UHGV virus genome: UHGV-0196292 | Origin: a virus | Length of the DNA: 44,047 nt | Strand: one strand, 5' to 3' | Shown here: positions 19,612-43,209 of the stretch, in pieces | How the letters are laid out: the number at the start of each line of letters is the position of its first letter | How positions within the stretch are numbered: position 1 is the stretch's first letter | Translations under genes and position numbers: made by a program | The notes under the pieces: model-generated | What the model saw: only the letters and a program-made list of their open reading frames with translations | Told to the model about the DNA's origin: nothing | The model's database searches: none

Positions 19612-19630
19612 TATCTGAATCAATTTAACT

Positions 19631-19654
19631 AAGGCCCTTCATTGGGCCTTTTTA
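19631..19654 (+). terminator. rho-independent terminator
   Basis: AAGGCCC-ttcatt-GGGCCTT followed by TTTT. Confidence 0.65.
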
Positions 19655-25059: not shown

Positions 25060-25193
25060 ACATCATAGCCCCGATTCCGGCATTGCAAAAACGTATCAAA
25101 GAACTTGAGGAGGAGGTTCTACGGCTACGGCAGCAAAGAGACGCCGCTAATGCGCAACTGGCGTTTGTACTGGAGAAGTTATCAGAAGAGTAG
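25056..25193 (+). CDS. small coiled-coil protein (45 aa)
   Basis: Hand translation MNIIAPIPALQKRIKELEEEVLRLRQQRDAANAQLAFVLEKLSEE; ATGA overlap with SNF2 stop. Confidence 0.35.
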   Translation: MNIIAPIPALQKRIKELEEEVLRLRQQRDAANAQLAFVLEKLSEE

Positions 25194-25195
25194 AG

Positions 25196-25228
25196 AAAAG
25201 GCCCCGTTATGGGGCCTTAGTTTTATGA
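25196..25228. terminator. bidirectional terminator between convergent replication and tail blocks
   Basis: AAGGCCCC-gttat-GGGGCCTT with T-runs on both strands. Confidence 0.65.
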
Positions 25229-31174: not shown

Positions 31175-33499
31175 TTAATACCCCGGCTGACCGCGGGTAG
31201 CGCGGCGAGCTTTAGAAATCGGTGAGTTGTTATCCTGTAACTGCGACGCTACTGTTTCACTGATTATAATACGTAAACGCCCTTCGTCATCACGTTCTGT
31301 TACGGCAGAGTCCACACGGCCGGTGGTATTGTTGACGATTGTCACGCTGTCGCCACCTGACGGGCTGCCGTTTTGGCCCATAATTTCTTTCATCTGCTGC
31401 GCGGTGCGCACACGCGATGCGCCAGCGGGCATGATAACCTCCGGCTTACCGCGTTCAGCGATGGTAGACATCTGGCCTGCCGATAGCTGCCCACCCTGTT
31501 CACGCGCCGAGCGGATTTTGGCGATATTAGCCAGCCCCGCGGCAACGGCAGTAGCCGCGGCAACCGGTGCCAGGAATGGGCCGACGACCGGTATCGCCGC
31601 AGTAGACTTATATGCTTCGATAGCTGACGTGTATGTTGCGATAGTGGCCTGGGCAATAGCAAACGCTTTATAAGCGGCGGACGCCTCGCCAAATGCTGTT
31701 TTAGCATTAGATGCCATGTCACCAAAGGCGTCCCCGGTGGCTTTGGCACGCTTCATTGAATACTGCTCATCCAGGGCTAGGAGCGCCATCTGGTACTGCT
31801 CAGCGTTAATTATGCCGTCGGCCATGTATTTTGAGATGATATTCGCTTTTTGAGACTGTTGTATTTCCAACAACTCAAGCTCAGCGGCATTCTGGCCCAT
31901 AATCTGGGCCATGAAGTCGTCTCCTTTCTGCTGCTTTTCCTGCTGCTCTTTTCTTTTCTTATCCAGTTCTTCCTGTCTGGCCTGCTCGGCTGTGAGCATA
32001 ATTTGAGTTTTGGCGTTTTCGTACTGCTGCTGGCTTATTGTTCCGGCGCGGTTGAACTCTTCAAGTTTCGCCAGTTTCTGCTCTTCTGCCGCTGTGATAC
32101 GTGAAATTTCGTCTCCGGTTGTTCGGTCGACAGTAGCGAGGAAATCTTCCGCCGCTTTTTTCTGTCGTTCAGCTGCGGTTTCTTCGCGTTTGGCTTGTGC
32201 CGCCAGACGTTTCTCGTTCGATTTAGCCTCTCGGTCTGCCTTCGCTTTTTCGGTCGCGTCGATGCGAGCGATGTCTTGCCGTGCTTCCGTGTCACGGGCC
32301 GCGTTATACGCGGCTATCTGTTCTTTGGTGACCGCTTCACGTTTAGCGAACGCCTGTTTATCAAGTTCAGCTTGCGCCCGGATGCGCTCACGGTCGCTTA
32401 ATATGGCGATTTGCTGATTCTTGACGATAGCTTCGTTCTGTTCCTGGAATCTCTGCGTTGTTGAGTTGACGTTACGACCAAGATTCTTTTGGGCCTCCGC
32501 CGCCGCGTTTGCCGACTTCTCCGCGTTCTCCAGTGCCGTGGCATTCTTGTTGGCGTTGTCCGTCAGGCGGATAAGTTCCGGGTTCAACTGTTTTGTGTTA
32601 CCGAGCCAGTCGGTAAACACATCGGCGATGCGACGGGCATTCTCAGCGGTTGGTTCTTTGTTAAACGCACTCTGTGCCGCTATCATCTCCAGCGCCTGGT
32701 CACGGTTAACCCCGAACTTACTGCTAAGCTCCGCGATATTCTGCGCCAGCATGTTGACGCCTACGATATTACCCTCGTAAGTGCCTCCGAGTTTTTCTAA
32801 CGTGTCGCCTACATCAGCACCCTTAGATACCAGCGCGTCGTACTGGCTAATAGCTGATGCAGTGGAGGCTTTCCATGTTTCCCACGATTCGGCATCTTCA
32901 CGAACAGCTTTAGCGGTTTGCTGCGCGATAAGGTCTGCGTTAGCCTTAGCCAGAGCAAGCTGAGTCTCCGCCGCTTCTCTGCTGATTTGGGTTAGCTGAA
33001 TAAGGCCGTCTGTCAGTTCTAGGGAGCCAGATGCCGTTTGCTGGAAGGTGTCTTTTAACTGTTTCTGGGCTGCTTCCAGGTCTTTTGAACTCCCCTCAGC
33101 CTCCGTTAGCGATTTGTACAGGACACCGCCAACAGCCGACGCTAGCGCGATTACAGCCCCAAGCACCGCACCACCAGGGCCGAAGGCACCTGCAAGCTGT
33201 GAACCTTGTTGCCCGATTGCTACGAATGCAGACGTGCCGGACTGCAATTGGACAACCATGTCCTGTACCTGGAAGCCAACCTGCCCGGCGGCGTTACGGA
33301 ACTTAGCGAAACCGTCAGAGGCCGCTTTAGAGGTAGCTGTGTTAACTTTATTAACATCTGGGGTCAGCTTGTTTACTGCGGTATCCGCACGGTCTGCAGA
33401 CGACGCCATAGCGTCAAGCTGTTTGGCGGCTACGTCAGCACCTTCTGTTTTTACTCTGGCAATTAGGGAAGCCGTATCAGCCATCTTCTCTGCCCTCAA
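31175..33499 (-). CDS. tail tape measure protein
   Basis: 774 aa, Ala/Gln/Glu-rich coiled coil with Gly-rich hydrophobic segments; follows chaperone pair. Confidence 0.85.
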   Translation of the reverse strand: MRAEKMADTASLIARVKTEGADVAAKQLDAMASSADRADTAVNKLTPDVNKVNTATSKAASDGFAKFRNAAGQVGFQVQDMVVQLQSGTSAFVAIGQQGSQLAGAFGPGGAVLGAVIALASAVGGVLYKSLTEAEGSSKDLEAAQKQLKDTFQQTASGSLELTDGLIQLTQISREAAETQLALAKANADLIAQQTAKAVREDAESWETWKASTASAISQYDALVSKGADVGDTLEKLGGTYEGNIVGVNMLAQNIAELSSKFGVNRDQALEMIAAQSAFNKEPTAENARRIADVFTDWLGNTKQLNPELIRLTDNANKNATALENAEKSANAAAEAQKNLGRNVNSTTQRFQEQNEAIVKNQQIAILSDRERIRAQAELDKQAFAKREAVTKEQIAAYNAARDTEARQDIARIDATEKAKADREAKSNEKRLAAQAKREETAAERQKKAAEDFLATVDRTTGDEISRITAAEEQKLAKLEEFNRAGTISQQQYENAKTQIMLTAEQARQEELDKKRKEQQEKQQKGDDFMAQIMGQNAAELELLEIQQSQKANIISKYMADGIINAEQYQMALLALDEQYSMKRAKATGDAFGDMASNAKTAFGEASAAYKAFAIAQATIATYTSAIEAYKSTAAIPVVGPFLAPVAAATAVAAGLANIAKIRSAREQGGQLSAGQMSTIAERGKPEVIMPAGASRVRTAQQMKEIMGQNGSPSGGDSVTIVNNTTGRVDSAVTERDDEGRLRIIISETVASQLQDNNSPISKARRATRGQPGY

Positions 33500-33749
33500 A
33501 TATTCCGTCTAAGCCCATGATAACCTCGGCTTCGAACAAACTTATGCCGTAACCGGCGACATCACGAAACGCTACCAAATCTTGCCATTTGAGCGCATCG
33601 CGCGGGATTATAACGATAGTATCATCTGTTTCGCGCTGTAGGAATTTAATGGCACGGTATTTCTCGAACACGTCGATAAGAGAAACGGGGCATTCCGGCC
33701 CCGTCGTTTCTTTCATCTGCGGTTCTTTAATCACGCCCATTGCAATCAA
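33477..33749 (-). CDS. tail assembly chaperone T-segment (expressed as G-T fusion by -1 frameshift)
   Basis: In -1 frame relative to upstream G-like ORF; frame open upstream to 33863; track start is TTG. Confidence 0.55.
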   Translation of the reverse strand: MIAMGVIKEPQMKETTGPECPVSLIDVFEKYRAIKFLQRETDDTIVIIPRDALKWQDLVAFRDVAGYGISLFEAEVIMGLDGIFEGREDG

Positions 33750-33838: not shown

Positions 33839-34255
33839 TTACTTTTCCGAGAGTTTCTCGCGGCTATCGGTGTGGTGCTTAACTACGGCTTCTGCCAACC
33901 CACTATACTGGTCAAACAGGTTAGCCAGCGCCTCTTTGCTGAACGGTTCGTCGAATGACCAACCGGTGACGATTTCCACGGCGAGCTGCTTGTTCAGGTC
34001 CATCACCCGCCAGCCCTTCTCATCGTTATAGCGCGCCCAGTTATTCAGCGCCTCGCACTCTTTATCTAATGGCGCAAGTTCTTCCGTAAGGCGTCGAATT
34101 GCCGTTGTGTAGGCGCGGCCCGCACGAACACCAGCGTCACAATCGGGGCCGATAACCTGCAACCATTCACCGGAATCTTTACCACTCGGCAGAAGGATAG
34201 GCATTTTAGTGCCTACAGCATGGCGGTCAGCAAAATAAAAATCAGAAAGTTTCAT
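33839..34255 (-). CDS. tail assembly chaperone (lambda G-like)
   Basis: 138 aa acidic ORF immediately upstream of T-segment and tape measure. Confidence 0.55.
   Translation of the reverse strand: MKLSDFYFADRHAVGTKMPILLPSGKDSGEWLQVIGPDCDAGVRAGRAYTTAIRRLTEELAPLDKECEALNNWARYNDEKGWRVMDLNKQLAVEIVTGWSFDEPFSKEALANLFDQYSGLAEAVVKHHTDSREKLSEK
33842..33848 (-). other. putative -1 programmed frameshift slippery site (mRNA GGAAAAG)
   Basis: GAA-AAG codons just before the G-like stop; lambda G/GT uses GGGAAAG. Confidence 0.4.
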
Positions 34256-34362
34256 TCTTTAATCCTTTGGTTAAGAGGTTACCGGTTAAGATTAACGCGC
34301 CAGACGGGAACCACCCGCTTTTCGTGTGCGACACTAGGCGCAAACTTATTCTAGCACACTAC

Positions 34363-34391
34363 TTGCACACCCCAATATAATAGGGTACTAT
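34363..34391 (+). promoter_or_regulatory. sigma70-like promoter TTGCAC-N17-TACTAT with AATAG-N4-CTATT palindrome
   Basis: Hexamers at 34363-34368 and 34386-34391; 18-mer identical to 20-37. Confidence 0.55.
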
Positions 34392-34416
34392 TCACCTGTA
34401 ACTTACTGAGGAAATA

Positions 34417-34746
34417 ATGATGCGTAAATTAGTATTAGCTCTGGGGTTTATGTCTTTTGCTGCTTTTGGGTCCCCGTGTGAACAGGTATTTAGTGAATCG
34501 GTTCTTATGACTTCTGGTGTGCTTGAGAAAGCCGACCCTACTATTGTAAAGGCATTTAAGGACTCTACCGTTCGCGAGTGTGAGGCCGCCGTAGAGGTTG
34601 GTAAATCTGGCCTACCTCCGCAAGCCGTAACATACTCGGTAATACGTTCGGTAGAGAAAAACGGAGACGCGTTTTACAGCCTACTGACCGCCACTCGTCT
34701 GCAAATGGTAATGACTGGGTGGGCGATAGGCGCGGAAAGTAAATAG
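34417..34746 (+). CDS. small secreted protein (cleavable signal peptide)
   Basis: N-terminus MMRKLVLALGFMSFAAFGSP is signal-peptide-like; RBS GAGGAA. Confidence 0.5.
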   Translation: MMRKLVLALGFMSFAAFGSPCEQVFSESVLMTSGVLEKADPTIVKAFKDSTVRECEAAVEVGKSGLPPQAVTYSVIRSVEKNGDAFYSLLTATRLQMVMTGWAIGAESK

Positions 34747-34811
34747 TCGCCTTTATTTAAAGGAATGCACTGTGGTTAAATAGGACAAATCCTAAACACG
34801 AGGAAGTAAGC

Positions 34812-35942
34812 ATGGCCCGGAAGAAAATAACCGACGAACAGTTACAGGAAGAATTGAACGCCGGAATGAAGAATATCGATATAGCCCGTAAATACGGCAT
34901 CTCAGACCGCGTTATTCGTATCCGTAAAGCGAAGCTGGCTAAGAAAGGCGTGGGCCACGGGCGCGACGTTAGCCACCTTGTCCCGGACGGCTACAAGATT
35001 AAAGGGACGTCGTCTCTGGTAGACGAGTTCGGCAACACTAAGTTGCAATGGGTTAAGACAGACACCGACGCTGAACGTCAGGTCGAGTTGATGAAAGCCG
35101 TGATTGAAGGCATGAAGTCAGAGATTACGCCAGTTGCGCCGGCTAAAGCGACTCGAGCCAAACGCGACGACAAGCTACTCAATCTTTACACGGTATCTGA
35201 TTTCCATCTCGGTATGCTTGCCTGGGCCGACGAGAGCGGCGACGACTGGGATATAAAGATTGCGGAAGACCTGTTCTCTCGTTGGTTCGACGCGGCGTTT
35301 CAGAAAGCACCGGATGCAGGAACAGGAGTTATTAACCTGCTGGGTGATTTCGCGCACTTCGATAGCCTGGATGCCGTTACCCCTGAGTCGCGCCATGTGT
35401 TAGACGCAGACACTCGCTACCAGAAACTTGTCCGCTACATGATTCGTATGGTCCGCCGTGTTGTTGATATGGCGCTGGTTAAACATAAAACCGTCCGCTT
35501 GCTTATCGTGCAAGGGAACCACGACCCTGTAGGGTCTGTATGGCTGGCGGAAATGTTCACGACTTTATACTCAAACGACAGCCGAGTGATTGTTGACACG
35601 TCGCCGGATGTTTACAAGATGGTGCAGCACGGCAAAACGACGCTGTTCTTCCATCACGGGCATAAAGCACGCTTCGACGCTATCGAACCGGTTATGATTG
35701 CCAAGTTCCGCAAAGCGTTCGGGGAGAGTGTCTATAGCTACGCCCACGTAGGCCACCTGCACCACCAGAAGATTGTAGAAAGCCGTAACATGATTGTTGA
35801 GCAACACCGCACCTTAGCGGCTAAAGACGCATACGCCTCCCGCGGCGGATGGATGTCAGGCCGCAGTGCAAATGTGATTACTTATAGCGCCGAATATGGC
35901 GAGGTCGCACGTTTAACCATTTCTCCGGAGATGCTGGGATGA
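34812..35942 (+). CDS. HTH-fused calcineurin-like metallophosphoesterase
   Basis: N-terminal HTH (DIARKYGISDRVIRIRKAKL); metallophosphatase motifs SDFHLG, GDFAHFD, GNHD, FHHGH, GHLHH. Confidence 0.7.
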   Translation: MARKKITDEQLQEELNAGMKNIDIARKYGISDRVIRIRKAKLAKKGVGHGRDVSHLVPDGYKIKGTSSLVDEFGNTKLQWVKTDTDAERQVELMKAVIEGMKSEITPVAPAKATRAKRDDKLLNLYTVSDFHLGMLAWADESGDDWDIKIAEDLFSRWFDAAFQKAPDAGTGVINLLGDFAHFDSLDAVTPESRHVLDADTRYQKLVRYMIRMVRRVVDMALVKHKTVRLLIVQGNHDPVGSVWLAEMFTTLYSNDSRVIVDTSPDVYKMVQHGKTTLFFHHGHKARFDAIEPVMIAKFRKAFGESVYSYAHVGHLHHQKIVESRNMIVEQHRTLAAKDAYASRGGWMSGRSANVITYSAEYGEVARLTISPEMLG

Positions 35943-36424
35943 AAGATATTGTAATTTTCGATTTAGATGGGACATTGGCGGATGGTACACATCGTTTACA
36001 CCTGCTGCCGAAAGATAACTACAACGAAACATGGGCGTGGAAGCCATTTAACATGGCGTGCAAAGATGATGAGCCAATTAGAGATAATATCGAACTATGT
36101 AACGCCCTTAATCGGCGATACGCCGTTATTATTTTAACCGGTCGCAGTGATGACGCAGAAAAAGAAACCAGAATGTGGTTGCAGCGCCACCGCGTCGAAT
36201 TTTATCAGCTAATCATGCGCAGCAAACACGACAACAGAAAAGACATCGTAATTAAAGAAGAGGTGTTGCGCGCTATCGGGCTGGAAAGAATCTTGTGTGC
36301 GTTCGATGATTCTCCGGCGGTAATTAAGCACTTCCGTGCCCTCGGCCTAACAACACACGCAGTCACCGAATATGACTGCAACGGGACCTCTACACACGTA
36401 AAACCACACGGGAGCGATAAATAA
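35939..36424 (+). CDS. HAD-family phosphatase (polynucleotide kinase 3'-phosphatase-like)
   Basis: HAD motif I FDLDGTL, then TGRSDD and FDDSP motifs; length and pattern resemble T4 PNK phosphatase domain. Confidence 0.6.
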   Translation: MKDIVIFDLDGTLADGTHRLHLLPKDNYNETWAWKPFNMACKDDEPIRDNIELCNALNRRYAVIILTGRSDDAEKETRMWLQRHRVEFYQLIMRSKHDNRKDIVIKEEVLRAIGLERILCAFDDSPAVIKHFRALGLTTHAVTEYDCNGTSTHVKPHGSDK

Positions 36425-36978
36425 TGGCTAAGGTAATTATTCTTAATGGCCCGGCGGGTTGTGGGAAAGACACACTCGCTATGGCGCTGGTAGAAATGGG
36501 CTTTGCGAAGGGAACCGCCAGTTTCAAGAATCCAATGTTCAATATTGCTTTGGCAGCGTTGGGCCCGGATGCTTACCGCGAATTTCTCGACGGCTACGAC
36601 GACCGGGCGCGGAAAGAAAGGCCAGAGGGTTTCCTTAATGGGCTGTCTCGCCGCCAGTTCATGATTGCCATTTCTGAGCAATTCATTAAACCAGTATTCG
36701 GCGATGATTATTTCGGTAAGTATCTTGCAGGAAACTTGCCCGACGGCGACGAAGTTTTTGTAGTGTCCGACGGTGGGTTCGCCAGCGAAGTAGCCCCTAT
36801 CGTCGCCGCAGGTCATGATGTAAGAATCGTTCGCTTGCACCGAGACGGCTATACGTTTGACGGGGATAGCCGCGGTTACCTGTACGATGTTGGTGGTGAT
36901 GAAGATTATGATGTATACATCATACCCGGTGACGTTAAATCTAACGTTATAGACATTGCTCTAAAATTAGGCTTGTAA
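36424..36978 (+). CDS. P-loop nucleotide kinase (dNMP kinase / polynucleotide kinase-like)
   Basis: Walker A GPAGCGKDT (xGKDT as in T4 dNMP kinase); ATGG overlap with preceding gene. Confidence 0.6.
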   Translation: MAKVIILNGPAGCGKDTLAMALVEMGFAKGTASFKNPMFNIALAALGPDAYREFLDGYDDRARKERPEGFLNGLSRRQFMIAISEQFIKPVFGDDYFGKYLAGNLPDGDEVFVVSDGGFASEVAPIVAAGHDVRIVRLHRDGYTFDGDSRGYLYDVGGDEDYDVYIIPGDVKSNVIDIALKLGL

Positions 36979-36980
36979 GA

Positions 36981-37012
36981 AAAAGGCCCCGGAAGGGGCC
37001 TTAGTTTTATGC
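36981..37012. terminator. bidirectional terminator between accessory cassette and major tail gene
   Basis: AAAAAGGCCCCGG-aa-GGGGCCTT with T-runs on both strands. Confidence 0.6.
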
Positions 37013-38179
37013 GTAGGTGATACGTTGAATTACGATGGACGACTGGTACTGATTGCCTGTGGACTGCCCTTCTATACTTTGGGTAATTGATTCCGGGCCA
37101 GATATTTCTGGTGTGACCGCCGTGAGTTCTGCACGTTTCAAACTGAAAGACATAGCCCCGTTTACCCCGGCCAGAATAGAGTTAATCTCTACCTGCTGTT
37201 CGTTGATAAACTTCTGAATCATCGCCATGTCGTACAGCTTACCGGAGATAGAGAAGGTGTTAGCTGCGCGGCCGCGTTCCACGAACGCAACGCTACTGTT
37301 GCCGAGTTCGAACTGTGCGGACGCGCTGTTATCGTTGGTGATGGTCAGGCTATCACAACGCAACGGCGTAGAACCGTCGAACACAGAAACGTCAACCGAG
37401 GAGAACGGCTCATCACCAAACGTAACAGAGGAGAAATCAGAACCAGACGGCGGCTCAGTGAGAATCTCCTGGGTCCGCCCGATAAACGGGAAGCTGCCGG
37501 TTACCATCGCATTAACAGCCTGCTCGACAGTGAAACCAGAAACTTCCACACCTTTGGTCAGCGTGTACGCGTCAGTCCCGCCACATTGGCCTTTGTACCA
37601 GGTGAGAATAGAGAACGTCTTACACTGGCTACCGGTTTCCAGTTTGTCGCCGGTCTTAGCCGCGGTAGTGGCTGTCTCTGTGGTCAGAGTATGTTGGATA
37701 CCAGCCCCGGTTACTACCAGTGCCGTTACCGCAGTGACGATAAACGGTTTAGCGTTATCACCCGTTAAGTCAGTAAAAGCAATCAGGTCGCCTACTTCCA
37801 CACCGTCAGTAATAAAGCTGCCATCAGCACGGGTGAACGTCTTGCCCGCCGGTGCGACGGTAATCGACAGACTGGACAGGGAGACACCGGATTGCCACGT
37901 AGAGCCTAAAGCCCCGGCTAACCAGTCATCCTGGCTTTTCGAACTAAGCTCGATAGCATATTCTCCGCTAACCTGCTTGTTACCGGTGCGGATGGATGTA
38001 GTTTCGCGGCTGCCGTCCAGTTCGTTGGAGGTCAGCGTGTCGCGGGTAATAGCAGGAACACCGCCTGTGTTGCGCAACGGCGACCATACCGGGTTAGTTG
38101 GTGTTACGCCCGGGGTGACTTCCGCCACATAGAATTGCGCGGTAGTCGCGCCCTTAAAAGGAGTTGTAGCCATATTCAC
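37007..38179 (-). CDS. major tail protein
   Basis: 390 aa Thr/Ser/Gly-rich beta-type protein after tail terminator-like gene, upstream of chaperone/tape measure module. Confidence 0.6.
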   Translation of the reverse strand: MNMATTPFKGATTAQFYVAEVTPGVTPTNPVWSPLRNTGGVPAITRDTLTSNELDGSRETTSIRTGNKQVSGEYAIELSSKSQDDWLAGALGSTWQSGVSLSSLSITVAPAGKTFTRADGSFITDGVEVGDLIAFTDLTGDNAKPFIVTAVTALVVTGAGIQHTLTTETATTAAKTGDKLETGSQCKTFSILTWYKGQCGGTDAYTLTKGVEVSGFTVEQAVNAMVTGSFPFIGRTQEILTEPPSGSDFSSVTFGDEPFSSVDVSVFDGSTPLRCDSLTITNDNSASAQFELGNSSVAFVERGRAANTFSISGKLYDMAMIQKFINEQQVEINSILAGVNGAMSFSLKRAELTAVTPEISGPESITQSIEGQSTGNQYQSSIVIQRITYA

Positions 38180-41354: not shown

Positions 41355-41385
41355 AGTAAATGAAAAGAGGGACCGAAGTCCCTCT
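41355..41385 (-). terminator. terminator/attenuator downstream of major capsid gene
   Basis: 8-bp stem AGAGGGAC-cgaa-GTCCCTCT followed by T-rich tract on minus strand. Confidence 0.5.
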
Positions 41386-41401
41386 CGATTATATCTTAAC
41401 C

Positions 41402-42451
41402 TTAAGCCCCGACACCAGTTACCAGGAAGGCAATCGGTACGTGCTTACGGTCAACCACACGGTTCCAGTTGGAGGCGTTCGCCAGGTCCTGCCAGGAGGC
41501 AGAACGTGCGGCAGTCTCGGTTCCGTTGCCGGTGATTACCGCGCTGGTGAAGCTGTAGCCCAGTGGGTGCAGCAACCAGGTCTTACGGGTCCACAGGGTT
41601 TCGACGCCGCCGCCGTTACCACGGGATGCTTCGCGCTCATATTCCAGCGGGTTAGACGGGGAACCTTCACCGTAACCGATAGCACCGTTGCCGAAGATGA
41701 TGGAGATGAACTTACGGCTGCCGCCAGTACCAACTACAGTCATGCTGTCATCAACAATCACACGGTAGCCCTGGTAGGTGGCGAACAAGGTGTCGTTGTC
41801 CGCATCTTTGATGTAGTCAATAAGCTGCTGCTTACGTGCCTGCGCATAAACGAAGCTGTGCATAGCAATAGCGCCCAGCACTTCACCGCCGTTGCCCATC
41901 AGCGCATCGCCCATAGTCTGGGTAGCGTCGATGAACGCGCCGGGATCGAAGCCCAGAGTAGCGGACACGTCGATTACCATGTCGTTCTGCTCGTGGTATT
42001 CGTCGGTAGCGGCTACGTTGTCGTTGTACAGACCGAGCGCGGTAGCAATCAGACGGCGTTGTGCCTGTCGCTGCCAGAAGTTATCCAGACGGGCCGCTAC
42101 GGATCTCAGAGGGTCTTGGCGGGTAAGTTCAACAGTCAGGTCAGCCTGACCGAAACCTTCGTTCAGGTACGCAACGCGGGCCATCATCTCACCAGTCTGC
42201 ACATTACGCGGGGTTGCGATATCCTGATACACATCGTTCGAGTAGTTCGGCTCGATAGACGTATCAATCGCTTTCCAGAAAGGGATGTTGGCGATGTTAG
42301 ATGGACCGCGGGCAATCTCGGCAGCGTATGGAGTCTGGGTAAGGATACCGGACTGGAAGAACGCAGTTTTTTCCACCGGGTCTTCTGTCATGTAAGACAG
42401 AATTACCGATTCTTTACCAGTTACGATATCGCCAATAGTAGTAATTGCCAT
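41402..42451 (-). CDS. major capsid protein
   Basis: 349 aa ORF downstream of scaffold-like gene, followed by strong terminator; the long antisense ORF 41360-43015 is rejected. Confidence 0.75.
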   Translation of the reverse strand: MAITTIGDIVTGKESVILSYMTEDPVEKTAFFQSGILTQTPYAAEIARGPSNIANIPFWKAIDTSIEPNYSNDVYQDIATPRNVQTGEMMARVAYLNEGFGQADLTVELTRQDPLRSVAARLDNFWQRQAQRRLIATALGLYNDNVAATDEYHEQNDMVIDVSATLGFDPGAFIDATQTMGDALMGNGGEVLGAIAMHSFVYAQARKQQLIDYIKDADNDTLFATYQGYRVIVDDSMTVVGTGGSRKFISIIFGNGAIGYGEGSPSNPLEYEREASRGNGGGVETLWTRKTWLLHPLGYSFTSAVITGNGTETAARSASWQDLANASNWNRVVDRKHVPIAFLVTGVGA

Positions 42452-43209
42452 TATTTTTTCCTCAGGGCTTTAAGTTGCCGTTCAAATTCGGCAGGGTTCG
42501 ATTCGTACAGAGCGATACGCTCCGCTTCACTCATGTCTTTAAACGCTGGTGCGGCCCCGCCGCCTTTGCTACCGGAAGCCCCGCCGCCGGAAGCTGCATT
42601 TGCTTTAATCAAATGCGAAAACGCTTTGTGTTCACGCAGATATTTGCGGAACTGTTCCGGGTCAGTCGTGATTACGTTGCCGTCTGCACCAACAAACTTA
42701 GTAACCACATCATCGCCTTCGAACTCAGTCTTAACGAACGGTGCAAGAATGTCCACTGCTTCCGGGGTGATGAAGTCACCCGCGAAAGAGCCTAACACTG
42801 CCTTACGTTCGCTGCCGAGGATGCGCTCTGCCATTTTAGAGATGCGGCCGTCTTTCTCGGCTAACACCGGGTCATACTGGCTACGAATCGTTTTTTCGAA
42901 CTCGTCCATCTTACCAGCAGCTTTTAACGCCTCCTGGTGTGCGCGCTGCCGTTCTTCTTCGGCCTCTTTTGCTTTACGGGCGGCTTCTTTCTTCTCCGCC
43001 AGCAATGCTTCCTGATTGGCCTTAAGCCCGGCTACTTCTTTCTCAATAAGCGCCTGAACTTCTTCGGCAGTGAACATTTTCAGCGCGTCACCGCCACCAG
43101 CTTTATCTTCTGCCCCAGCTTCTTCCTGGAACGGATAACGTAAAAAACGATTCATAGTCAGTATGTCCCCTGGACGTTGGAACCCGGGCCACCCGGATTT
43201 ACATGTCAA
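42451..43209 (-). CDS. scaffolding protein (putative)
   Basis: Acidic, Ala/Lys/Glu-rich coiled-coil protein immediately upstream of capsid gene; start probably internal (MNRFL). Confidence 0.55.
   Translation of the reverse strand: MTCKSGWPGFQRPGDILTMNRFLRYPFQEEAGAEDKAGGGDALKMFTAEEVQALIEKEVAGLKANQEALLAEKKEAARKAKEAEEERQRAHQEALKAAGKMDEFEKTIRSQYDPVLAEKDGRISKMAERILGSERKAVLGSFAGDFITPEAVDILAPFVKTEFEGDDVVTKFVGADGNVITTDPEQFRKYLREHKAFSHLIKANAASGGGASGSKGGGAAPAFKDMSEAERIALYESNPAEFERQLKALRKK

Follow-up and report, generated by a model that had tools for sequence, protein, structure and literature searches.

The virus genome UHGV-0196292 (44,047 bases, analysed at full length and called the window here) is the whole genome of a siphovirus of the genus Kagunavirus in the Guernseyvirinae. 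Amid its minus-strand tail genes lies an island of four co-oriented plus-strand genes (34417-36978), encoding in order a small protein with a signal-peptide-like N-terminus, a metallophosphoesterase with an N-terminal helix-turn-helix (HTH), a stand-alone HAD phosphatase and a P-loop kinase (Table 1). A first-pass annotation had already described four genes that interrupt the tail operon, with products called secreted protein, HTH-metallophosphoesterase, PNK-like HAD phosphatase and P-loop kinase. These calls are correct, and the open reading frames (ORFs) and the flanking PF08748 and PF18906 genes confirm the arrangement. All four island ORFs are real genes, judged by their matches to PHROG families. 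The overlapping stops and starts reported for the three enzymes can be read in the sequence, as ATGA (35939-35942) for the phosphoesterase stop and HAD start, and as TAATG (36422-36426) for the HAD stop and kinase start. We suggest that the island might serve to supply DNA precursors, as a module joined to a core phage nuclease, a reading to which we give an about even chance. It draws on gene identities, fold and family membership, conservation of catalytic residues and gene-linkage statistics.

Table 1. Features of the plus-strand island and its flanks in the window
Feature	Positions	Strand	Match or remark
Promoter-like element TTGCAC-17 nt-TACTAT, 32 nt	34363..34394	+	second copy and conservation; function inferred
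109-aa protein with signal-peptide-like N-terminus	34417..34746	+	phrog_14165, E 1.6e-55; no assigned function
HTH, beta-hairpin linker and binuclear metallophosphoesterase, 376 aa	34812..35942	+	phrog_704, E 5e-163
Stand-alone HAD phosphatase, T4 Pnkp phosphatase type, 161 aa	35939..36424	+	PF25109 HAD_PNKP, E 1.2e-19; phrog_415, E 1.3e-64
T4 gp1-type deoxynucleoside monophosphate kinase homologue, 184 aa	36424..36978	+	phrog_139, E 6.9e-46; GxxGxGKD-T P-loop
Bidirectional intrinsic terminator hairpin	36983..37002	both	called on both strands; common to the island and the convergent tail tube gene
Tail assembly chaperone, left flank	33839..34255	-	PF08748, phrog_15027; divergent from island promoter region
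Tail tube (major tail), right flank	37007..38179	-	PF18906, E 6.3e-35; converges on the shared terminator

We interpret the phosphoesterase as the island's ancestral core, a gene that can do its work in the absence of the HAD phosphatase and kinase. Its PHROG family carries the label 'DNA repair exonuclease', and Pfam metallophosphoesterase models reached the protein below threshold only. A first deep search yielded near-identical sequences only, and the alignment was seeded with a homologue from a Rhodobacter phage. All five binuclear-metal motifs are invariant in the resulting 60 sequences (D130, H132, D179, N236, H237, H281-H284, H315 and H317). Among diverse environmental phages the protein retains ~55% identity, with ~60 invariant positions. 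The AlphaFold2 (AF2) model (pLDDT 77.5) shows an N-terminal three-helix HTH, a conserved beta-hairpin and helix, and the phosphoesterase core. In fold the protein comes nearest to the nucleases Mre11, SbcD and DP1, with generic phosphodiesterases scoring nearly as high. The window protein has the five binuclear metallophosphoesterase motifs expected of an Mre11/SbcD nuclease. Compared with Mre11/SbcD and the archaeal PolD DP1 exonuclease, it carries an N-terminal HTH/beta-hairpin module instead of the C-terminal capping domain. Sequence searches of the PDB with single proteins and with family profiles decided nothing for the phosphoesterase and the kinase, giving P-loop or HTH matches only. 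A Rad50/SbcC-type partner is not annotated in the 90%-identical phage K1H, and no dedicated search for one was made. The phosphoesterase most likely acts on DNA as an Mn2+-dependent nuclease or phosphodiesterase. It is found in >2000 phage records, and in Drexlerviridae the 'DNA repair exonuclease' is persistent, occurring in 508 of 522 genomes (PMC13164509). A different phage metallophosphoesterase, without an HTH, damages host DNA (PMC12287305).

The second enzyme is, by its sequence, a bona fide Pnkp-type phosphatase, with Pnkp1 (4xrp) and T4 Pnk (1ltq) as its best sequence matches in the PDB. The T4 residues DxDxT, R176, R213, D254, K258 and D277/D278 correspond to D8/D10/T12, R19, R69, D102, K106 and D123/D124 of the window protein. 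In an alignment of stand-alone HADs with a PseT phosphatase domain, D8, D10, T12, R19, R69, D102, K106 and D124 are invariant, and D123 is the sole listed counterpart that is not. Judged by length, no separate HAD cap domain is predicted, and the stand-alone HADs carry a ~16-residue subfamily insert (HRLHLLP...W..FN) after the first Arg. The window HAD thus has the phosphatase family PF25109 and all catalytic residues in common with T4 PseT (1ltq) and Capnocytophaga Pnkp1 (4xrp), but it lacks their fused Pnk-type kinase domain, and its neighbouring kinase comes from another family. T4 PseT belongs to PHROG 505 and has an RNA ligase partner, whereas the stand-alone HADs form their own PHROG 415 and the window genome has no RNA ligase partner. 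Related HADs occur in ~2600 phage records. An RB49-like Krischvirus carries a stand-alone PHROG 415 HAD (contig L009, 4998-5474; 38% identical) that overlaps the stop codon of nrdB, with a genuine denA-rnlA-pseT cluster 2-5 kb away. This paralogue appears, from its gene context, to be tied to nucleotide metabolism.

The kinase looks like a member of the T4 gp1 deoxynucleoside monophosphate (dNMP) kinase family, on sequence and predicted fold, and not like a polynucleotide kinase. It matches phrog_139 over profile positions 82-248, and T4 gp1, a biochemically characterised enzyme, matches the same family at E 1.8e-65 over positions 83-261. Comparison of the kinase profile by hhalign gave gp1 a probability of 82% (E 1e-5), against 22% for a PseT protein, and two methods of structural comparison rank T4 gp1 (1dek) first. 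Both the fold and the P-loop (GxxxxGKD-T) are of the T4 gp1 type, and the GxxGxGKD-T form of the loop is one that we take to be shared by gp1 and animal phosphomevalonate kinases. An invariant Lys, K35, follows the second strand, presumably where Pnk-type kinases place the catalytic Asp. The island contains no Pnk-type 5'-OH polynucleotide kinase domain, either fused to the HAD or adjacent to it. The window kinase is ~20% identical to T4 gp1 and shorter (184 aa against 241 aa), and the hhalign alignment is confident over the N-terminal ~74 columns only. T4 gp1 is not coupled to a phosphatase, whereas the window kinase is translationally coupled to the HAD. The kinase is found in ~1500 phage records. 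T4 gene 1, encoding the dNMP kinase (contig L170, 2650-3375), also lies among structural genes (57A, 3, 2 and 4), which parallels the kinase in the tail module.

The HAD phosphatase and kinase are a linked, optional pair, and the trio is not obligatory. Among 80 contigs centred on the kinase, a HAD lies within 5 kb upstream in 63, and all three genes occur together in 24. Among the 17 'kinase alone' loci, 11 are immediately preceded by a metallophosphoesterase gene from another family, phrog_221. Proteins of this family have ~325-400 aa with a ~100-residue N-terminal extension, and they replace phrog_704 directly upstream of the HAD/kinase genes in phiKMV-like podoviruses (contig L171, 4030-5004, which is PhiM1_27; contig L165, 3957-4970). 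Neither jackhmmer nor the A2 profile search nor hhalign could link this family to the other by sequence, and we treat phrog_704 and phrog_221, on their sequences, as separate families in the same position. In the set centred on the HAD, the gene following 35 close relatives is this kinase in 22 cases and a PF18909 protein in nine. The latter is MazZ-like and dATP/dGTP-diphosphohydrolase-like, and both partners belong with the enzymes of free nucleotides. The common pattern is a phosphoesterase of phrog_704 or phrog_221, a HAD, and either the kinase or the PF18909 protein, with the phosphoesterase upstream in most loci. The surroundings of these close HAD relatives are free of genes for an RNA ligase, a reductase or a Pnk kinase. 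Whatever takes turns with the HAD and kinase, or comes along with them, would have free deoxynucleotides or DNA as its substrate. In Pectobacterium phage PhiM1, mutations in M1-23 escape the ToxIN endoribonuclease; the gene was considered as a member of the module and rejected, as it lies ~2 kb upstream with other genes between. Fitness data from the CRISPRi-ART study of phage PTXU04 and from a phage Tn-seq preprint cover no related phage.

The optional nature of the pair is also visible among close siblings of the window. In Kagunavirus contigs with 95%-identical phosphoesterases, the downstream slot holds the HAD and kinase, a 76-aa protein, an HNH endonuclease with the 76-aa protein, or no plus-strand ORF. 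The Salmonella Jerseyviruses likewise carry the phosphoesterase island without HAD and kinase. The 76-aa protein, in some cases preceded by an HNH_3 homing endonuclease, was seen at 7137-7837 of L016, 7128-7358 of L018 and 1867-2097 of L021, all Kagunavirus contigs. It matches only the C-terminal part of phrog_2452 and of several other longer PHROGs. As to how cargo is exchanged in this slot, the presence of the HNH gene offers a hint.

The first slot of the island is swappable as well and serves envelope-directed accessory genes, since sibling phages hold there a 63-68-aa membrane protein of the Imm_superinfect family (PF14373) instead. The 109-aa protein of the window begins with MMRK, followed by a hydrophobic core (LVLALGFMSFAAF) and AFG/S, and would be secreted via this signal peptide. 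It occurs in 99 phage records, exclusively in Guernseyvirinae, and gave no match in Pfam, NCBIfam or PADLOC. NCBIfam searches with the island proteins in general returned nothing useful.

The island likely has its own promoter, a conserved, unmapped promoter-like element at 34363, although of all its described features this one is the least certain. A second copy at positions 6-37 of the window is 91% identical, and the two share the pattern TTGCA(C/G)-17-TACTAT. Both copies precede a lone plus-strand gene or unit among minus-strand structural genes, and K1H has a 34-nt copy elsewhere in its genome (contig L001, 35236-35269). In all Kagunavirus loci, irrespective of the downstream cargo, conservation of the surrounding intergenic stretch (34256-34395) amounts to 92-97%. 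We regard the element as promoter-like because of this conservation and its second copy. A promoter had been claimed in the first-pass annotation, and the element supports the claim, but a generic scan for the sigma-70 consensus does not, as it performed at chance level (4 found, 4.2 expected) and missed the conserved element. The generic scan also placed a promoter-like site on the minus strand at 34402-34374. Within the element, the palindrome AATAG-ggta-CTATT (AATAGGGTACTATT; AATAGggtaCTATT) overlaps the -10-like hexamer. An HTH protein could use it as an operator, and the N-terminal HTH of the phosphoesterase is one candidate.

At its other end the island is closed by a hairpin with an 8-bp G+C-rich stem (6 G-C pairs), preceded by an A-run and followed by a T-run. 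The earlier call of a bidirectional terminator stands, as the hairpin is recognized on both strands. It belongs to a G+C-rich hairpin family with four copies (AAGGCCCC-loop-GGGGCCTT; families D1 and D3) at 275-306, 19619-19650, 25186-25217 and 36971-37002. Three of the four lie at convergent-gene junctions, and the family suggests a shared bidirectional terminator design. A second inverted mini-island lies beside the head genes on the plus strand at 55-282. It is preceded by the same promoter-like element and closed by a hairpin of the same family (287-306), and it encodes a 75-aa membrane-type protein with one hydrophobic segment (phrog_26710, a family of unassigned role).

The window is closely related to well-described phages. 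The queried region has 90-92% DNA identity to phages M01, K1H, K1ind and many more, and the phosphoesterase is 98.9% identical to its homologue in the BASEL phage AnnaReinhart_Bas75. The same island is annotated in K1H (GenBank GU196278), Bas75 and dozens of published relatives. In K1H, whose annotated layout matches the window, the structural genes form a long run on one strand, and the replication genes on the other strand encode a helicase-primase, exonuclease, DNA polymerase, methyltransferase and helicase. Four inverted genes lie between the K1H genes for the tail tube and the tail assembly chaperone. The minus-strand ORFs 33477-33749 and 33839-34255 of the window are a tail assembly chaperone pair, annotated in K1H as a two-piece joined product (programmed frameshift). 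Drexlerviridae (T1-like phages, e.g., KP36) carry the same three enzyme families in the same order, given as 'DNA repair exonuclease - PNK - dNMP kinase', with a terminator at the end. There the trio stands at the end of the replication module beside the lysis genes, whereas in all Guernseyvirinae including the window the phosphoesterase island is inverted within the tail module, flanked by the genes for the tail tube and the chaperone. The island is thus already known as a feature, being annotated in many Guernseyvirinae and Drexlerviridae genomes, with the adjacency of the trio in print. It looks like a known, widely shared module that processes DNA and supplies its building blocks rather than a new system for RNA or DNA end repair.

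The gene content of the window includes a DNA polymerase, a helicase-primase and an exonuclease. No ORF in the window resembles a DNA ligase, RNA ligase, ribonucleotide reductase, Pnk kinase or second gp1, and no thymidylate synthase is among its genes. Searches with RnlA and DNA ligase queries (phmmer against all stop-to-stop ORFs of the window) found no match, which agrees with the earlier remark that no ligase is present, and a ligase is absent from the K1H annotation. Scans for tRNAs and Rfam families over the whole window gave zero matches. An open frame of 551 codons (41360-43015, plus strand) lies opposite the minus-strand genes for the major head (41402-42451) and scaffolding (42451-43209) proteins. 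The frame has no PHROG match, while the opposing genes match strongly, and it is probably a non-coding stop-free frame.

We favor a role in DNA-precursor supply because the phosphoesterase is the core of the island, the HAD and kinase are an optional linked pair, the companion genes act on nucleotides or DNA, and the phage has its own polymerase without genes for precursor synthesis. Remodelling of the nucleotide pool was among the options listed in the first-pass annotation, and it matches this choice. The island would be an ancestral, host-promoter-driven transcription unit set backwards in the tail module of Guernseyvirinae. Its parts would be a swappable first slot for envelope-targeted accessory proteins, an HTH-tethered, Mre11/SbcD-like core phosphoesterase and the optional pair of HAD and kinase. 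The nuclease might free oligo- and mononucleotides from DNA, after which the HAD would strip 3'-phosphates from 3'-dNMPs, pdNp or 3'-phosphorylated ends and spare 5'-phosphates. The kinase would then turn 5'-dNMPs into dNDPs, and the host Ndk could complete the conversion of dNDPs to dNTPs. Such precursors would feed the DNA polymerase of the phage, whose genome is without ribonucleotide reductase, thymidylate synthase and ligase. The phosphoesterase, from either family, that precedes the HAD or kinase in most of these loci fits this reading too. A role in 'enhancing nucleotide supply' was proposed independently for the same genes in a 2026 study of Drexlerviridae (PMC13164509).

Several observations weigh against precursor supply. 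In a set of 80 viral contigs centred on the phosphoesterase, ~60 encode neither a HAD nor a kinase up to 6 kb away, and the phosphoesterase may have an unrelated job, since most copies occur without the pair. HAD and kinase are absent in sibling phages, therefore any benefit they bring is conditional. The HAD keeps every residue of the T4 Pnkp phosphatase and is too short for a cap, which suggests that it would suit polynucleotide ends. Four podovirus lineages include 14 loci in which the kinase is followed directly by a gene for an ATP-dependent DNA ligase (PF01068, PF14743). These include contigs L040 (5992-9267), L044, L154, L157, L158 and L199, with contiguous phosphoesterase-HAD-kinase-ligase or phosphoesterase-kinase-ligase arrays. 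By analogy, this adjacency would also fit a pathway that heals and seals ends.

The latter possibility can be extended to the island itself, where a split Pnkp-like system might heal broken DNA or RNA, an explanation that we consider unlikely. The HAD would remove 3'-phosphates and the kinase would phosphorylate 5'-OH ends, while the phosphoesterase would open 2',3'-cyclic phosphates or trim blocked ends, like its counterpart in the Pnkp of Clostridium thermocellum. Sealing would fall to the host LigA or RtcB, or to the phage DNA ligase of relatives. The first-pass annotation had recognized a set of end-healing chemistries here, and this holds for the HAD, which is of Pnkp type with all its residues and has Pnkp1 and T4 Pnk as best matches, but not for the gp1-type kinase or for the trio, which is not obligate. 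Translational coupling of HAD and kinase and their co-occurrence in 63 of 80 contigs resemble the two domains of T4 Pnkp, and the podovirus ligase genes right after the kinase point the same way. However, K35 stands invariant at the presumed place of the catalytic Asp of Pnk, the kinase falls outside the Pnk type, and neither an RNA ligase, a DNA ligase nor tRNA genes were found in the window. The ~60 of 80 phosphoesterase loci without the pair count against healing as well, as do the dNTP pyrophosphohydrolase-like protein that is the alternative partner of the HAD and the RB49-like paralogue, which is found beside nrdAB and not in the genuine pseT-rnlA cluster. T7-like phages have a replicative ligase anyway, so the adjacency of kinase and ligase may only reflect a shared DNA-metabolism module. 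The Pnkp of Clostridium thermocellum is an RNA repair enzyme with kinase, metallophosphoesterase and ligase-like parts and a Hen1 methyltransferase partner. Compared by description only, it is similar in combining P-loop kinase and binuclear metallophosphoesterase chemistries, with a ligase gene present in some podovirus relatives of the island. Its domains are fused, however, whereas the window proteins are separate and the kinase is of gp1 rather than Pnk type. Of a full Pnkp/Hen1 set, the window shows the metallophosphoesterase chemistry only, as its kinase is of another type and no adenylyltransferase or ligase was found; Hen1 was not specifically searched.

Counter-defence is a less probable explanation again, and we regard it as quite unlikely. 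The phosphoesterase would hydrolyse cyclic (oligo)nucleotides, or the HAD and kinase would rid the cell of dNMP-type alarm molecules that stem from degraded host DNA. The bacterial PUA-calcineurin-HAD defence senses m6-dAMP released by phage-induced chromosome breakdown, with a phosphoesterase and a HAD that act on nucleotides (bioRxiv 10.64898/2026.01.15.699771). By analogy, dNMP-consuming phage enzymes could plausibly blunt sensing of this type, and the own promoter and variable first slot are features of accessory genes. On the other hand, the first three proteins have no match in PADLOC, and the kinase has a P-loop match only (E 0.046). The known signal-degrading proteins Acb1 (2H fold) and Apyc1 (metallo-beta-lactamase fold) are not known to be related in fold to the phosphoesterase. 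Anti-defence genes typically evolve fast, in contrast to the extreme conservation and persistent core status of the phosphoesterase. A nucleic-acid substrate is what its N-terminal HTH points to, and BASEL Kagunaviruses resemble other small siphoviruses against the defences tested. In a combined reading, which we hold to be still more doubtful, the phosphoesterase would represent a class of DNA nuclease, nearly universal in phages, that is directed by sequence or structure. Its optional partners, the HAD and kinase, would both recycle the resulting nucleotides and rapidly consume dNMP 'danger' molecules such as m6-dAMP, the trigger of dNMP-sensing defences like PUA-Cal-HAD. If true, counter-defence would be achieved through nucleotide housekeeping. 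Least supported, and very improbable, is that the HTH-metallophosphoesterase, instead of being a nuclease, acts as a protein phosphatase like lambda NinI or regulates by binding DNA, with HAD and kinase as mere neighbours. Such a role could be consistent with the weak similarity of the HTH to GerE/LuxR, sigma-70 region 4 and a 'late transcriptional activator' PHROG, with the palindrome inside the promoter element, and with the location of the gene in many phages at the end of the early region before the lysis/terminase genes, like the lambda nin region. Yet neither the fold nor the sequence signature is that of NinI/PPP-type Ser/Thr phosphatases, and the NinI-like PHROG was unmatched. All catalytic metal ligands are invariant, therefore the phosphoesterase should be an enzyme and not merely a DNA binder, and the recurrence of a phosphoesterase from either of two families upstream of the HAD or kinase argues for a functional link.

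The GenBank labels 'polynucleotide kinase' and '3'-phosphatase, 5'-polynucleotide kinase' for the HAD gene are misleading, as the gene encodes the phosphatase half only. The PHROG 704 HTH-metallophosphoesterase is among the most conserved and most widespread phage genes with a function that is only predicted. Because Kagunaviruses occur in nature both with the HAD and kinase and lacking them, they provide a ready-made genetic comparison for the contribution of nucleotide enzymes in phages.

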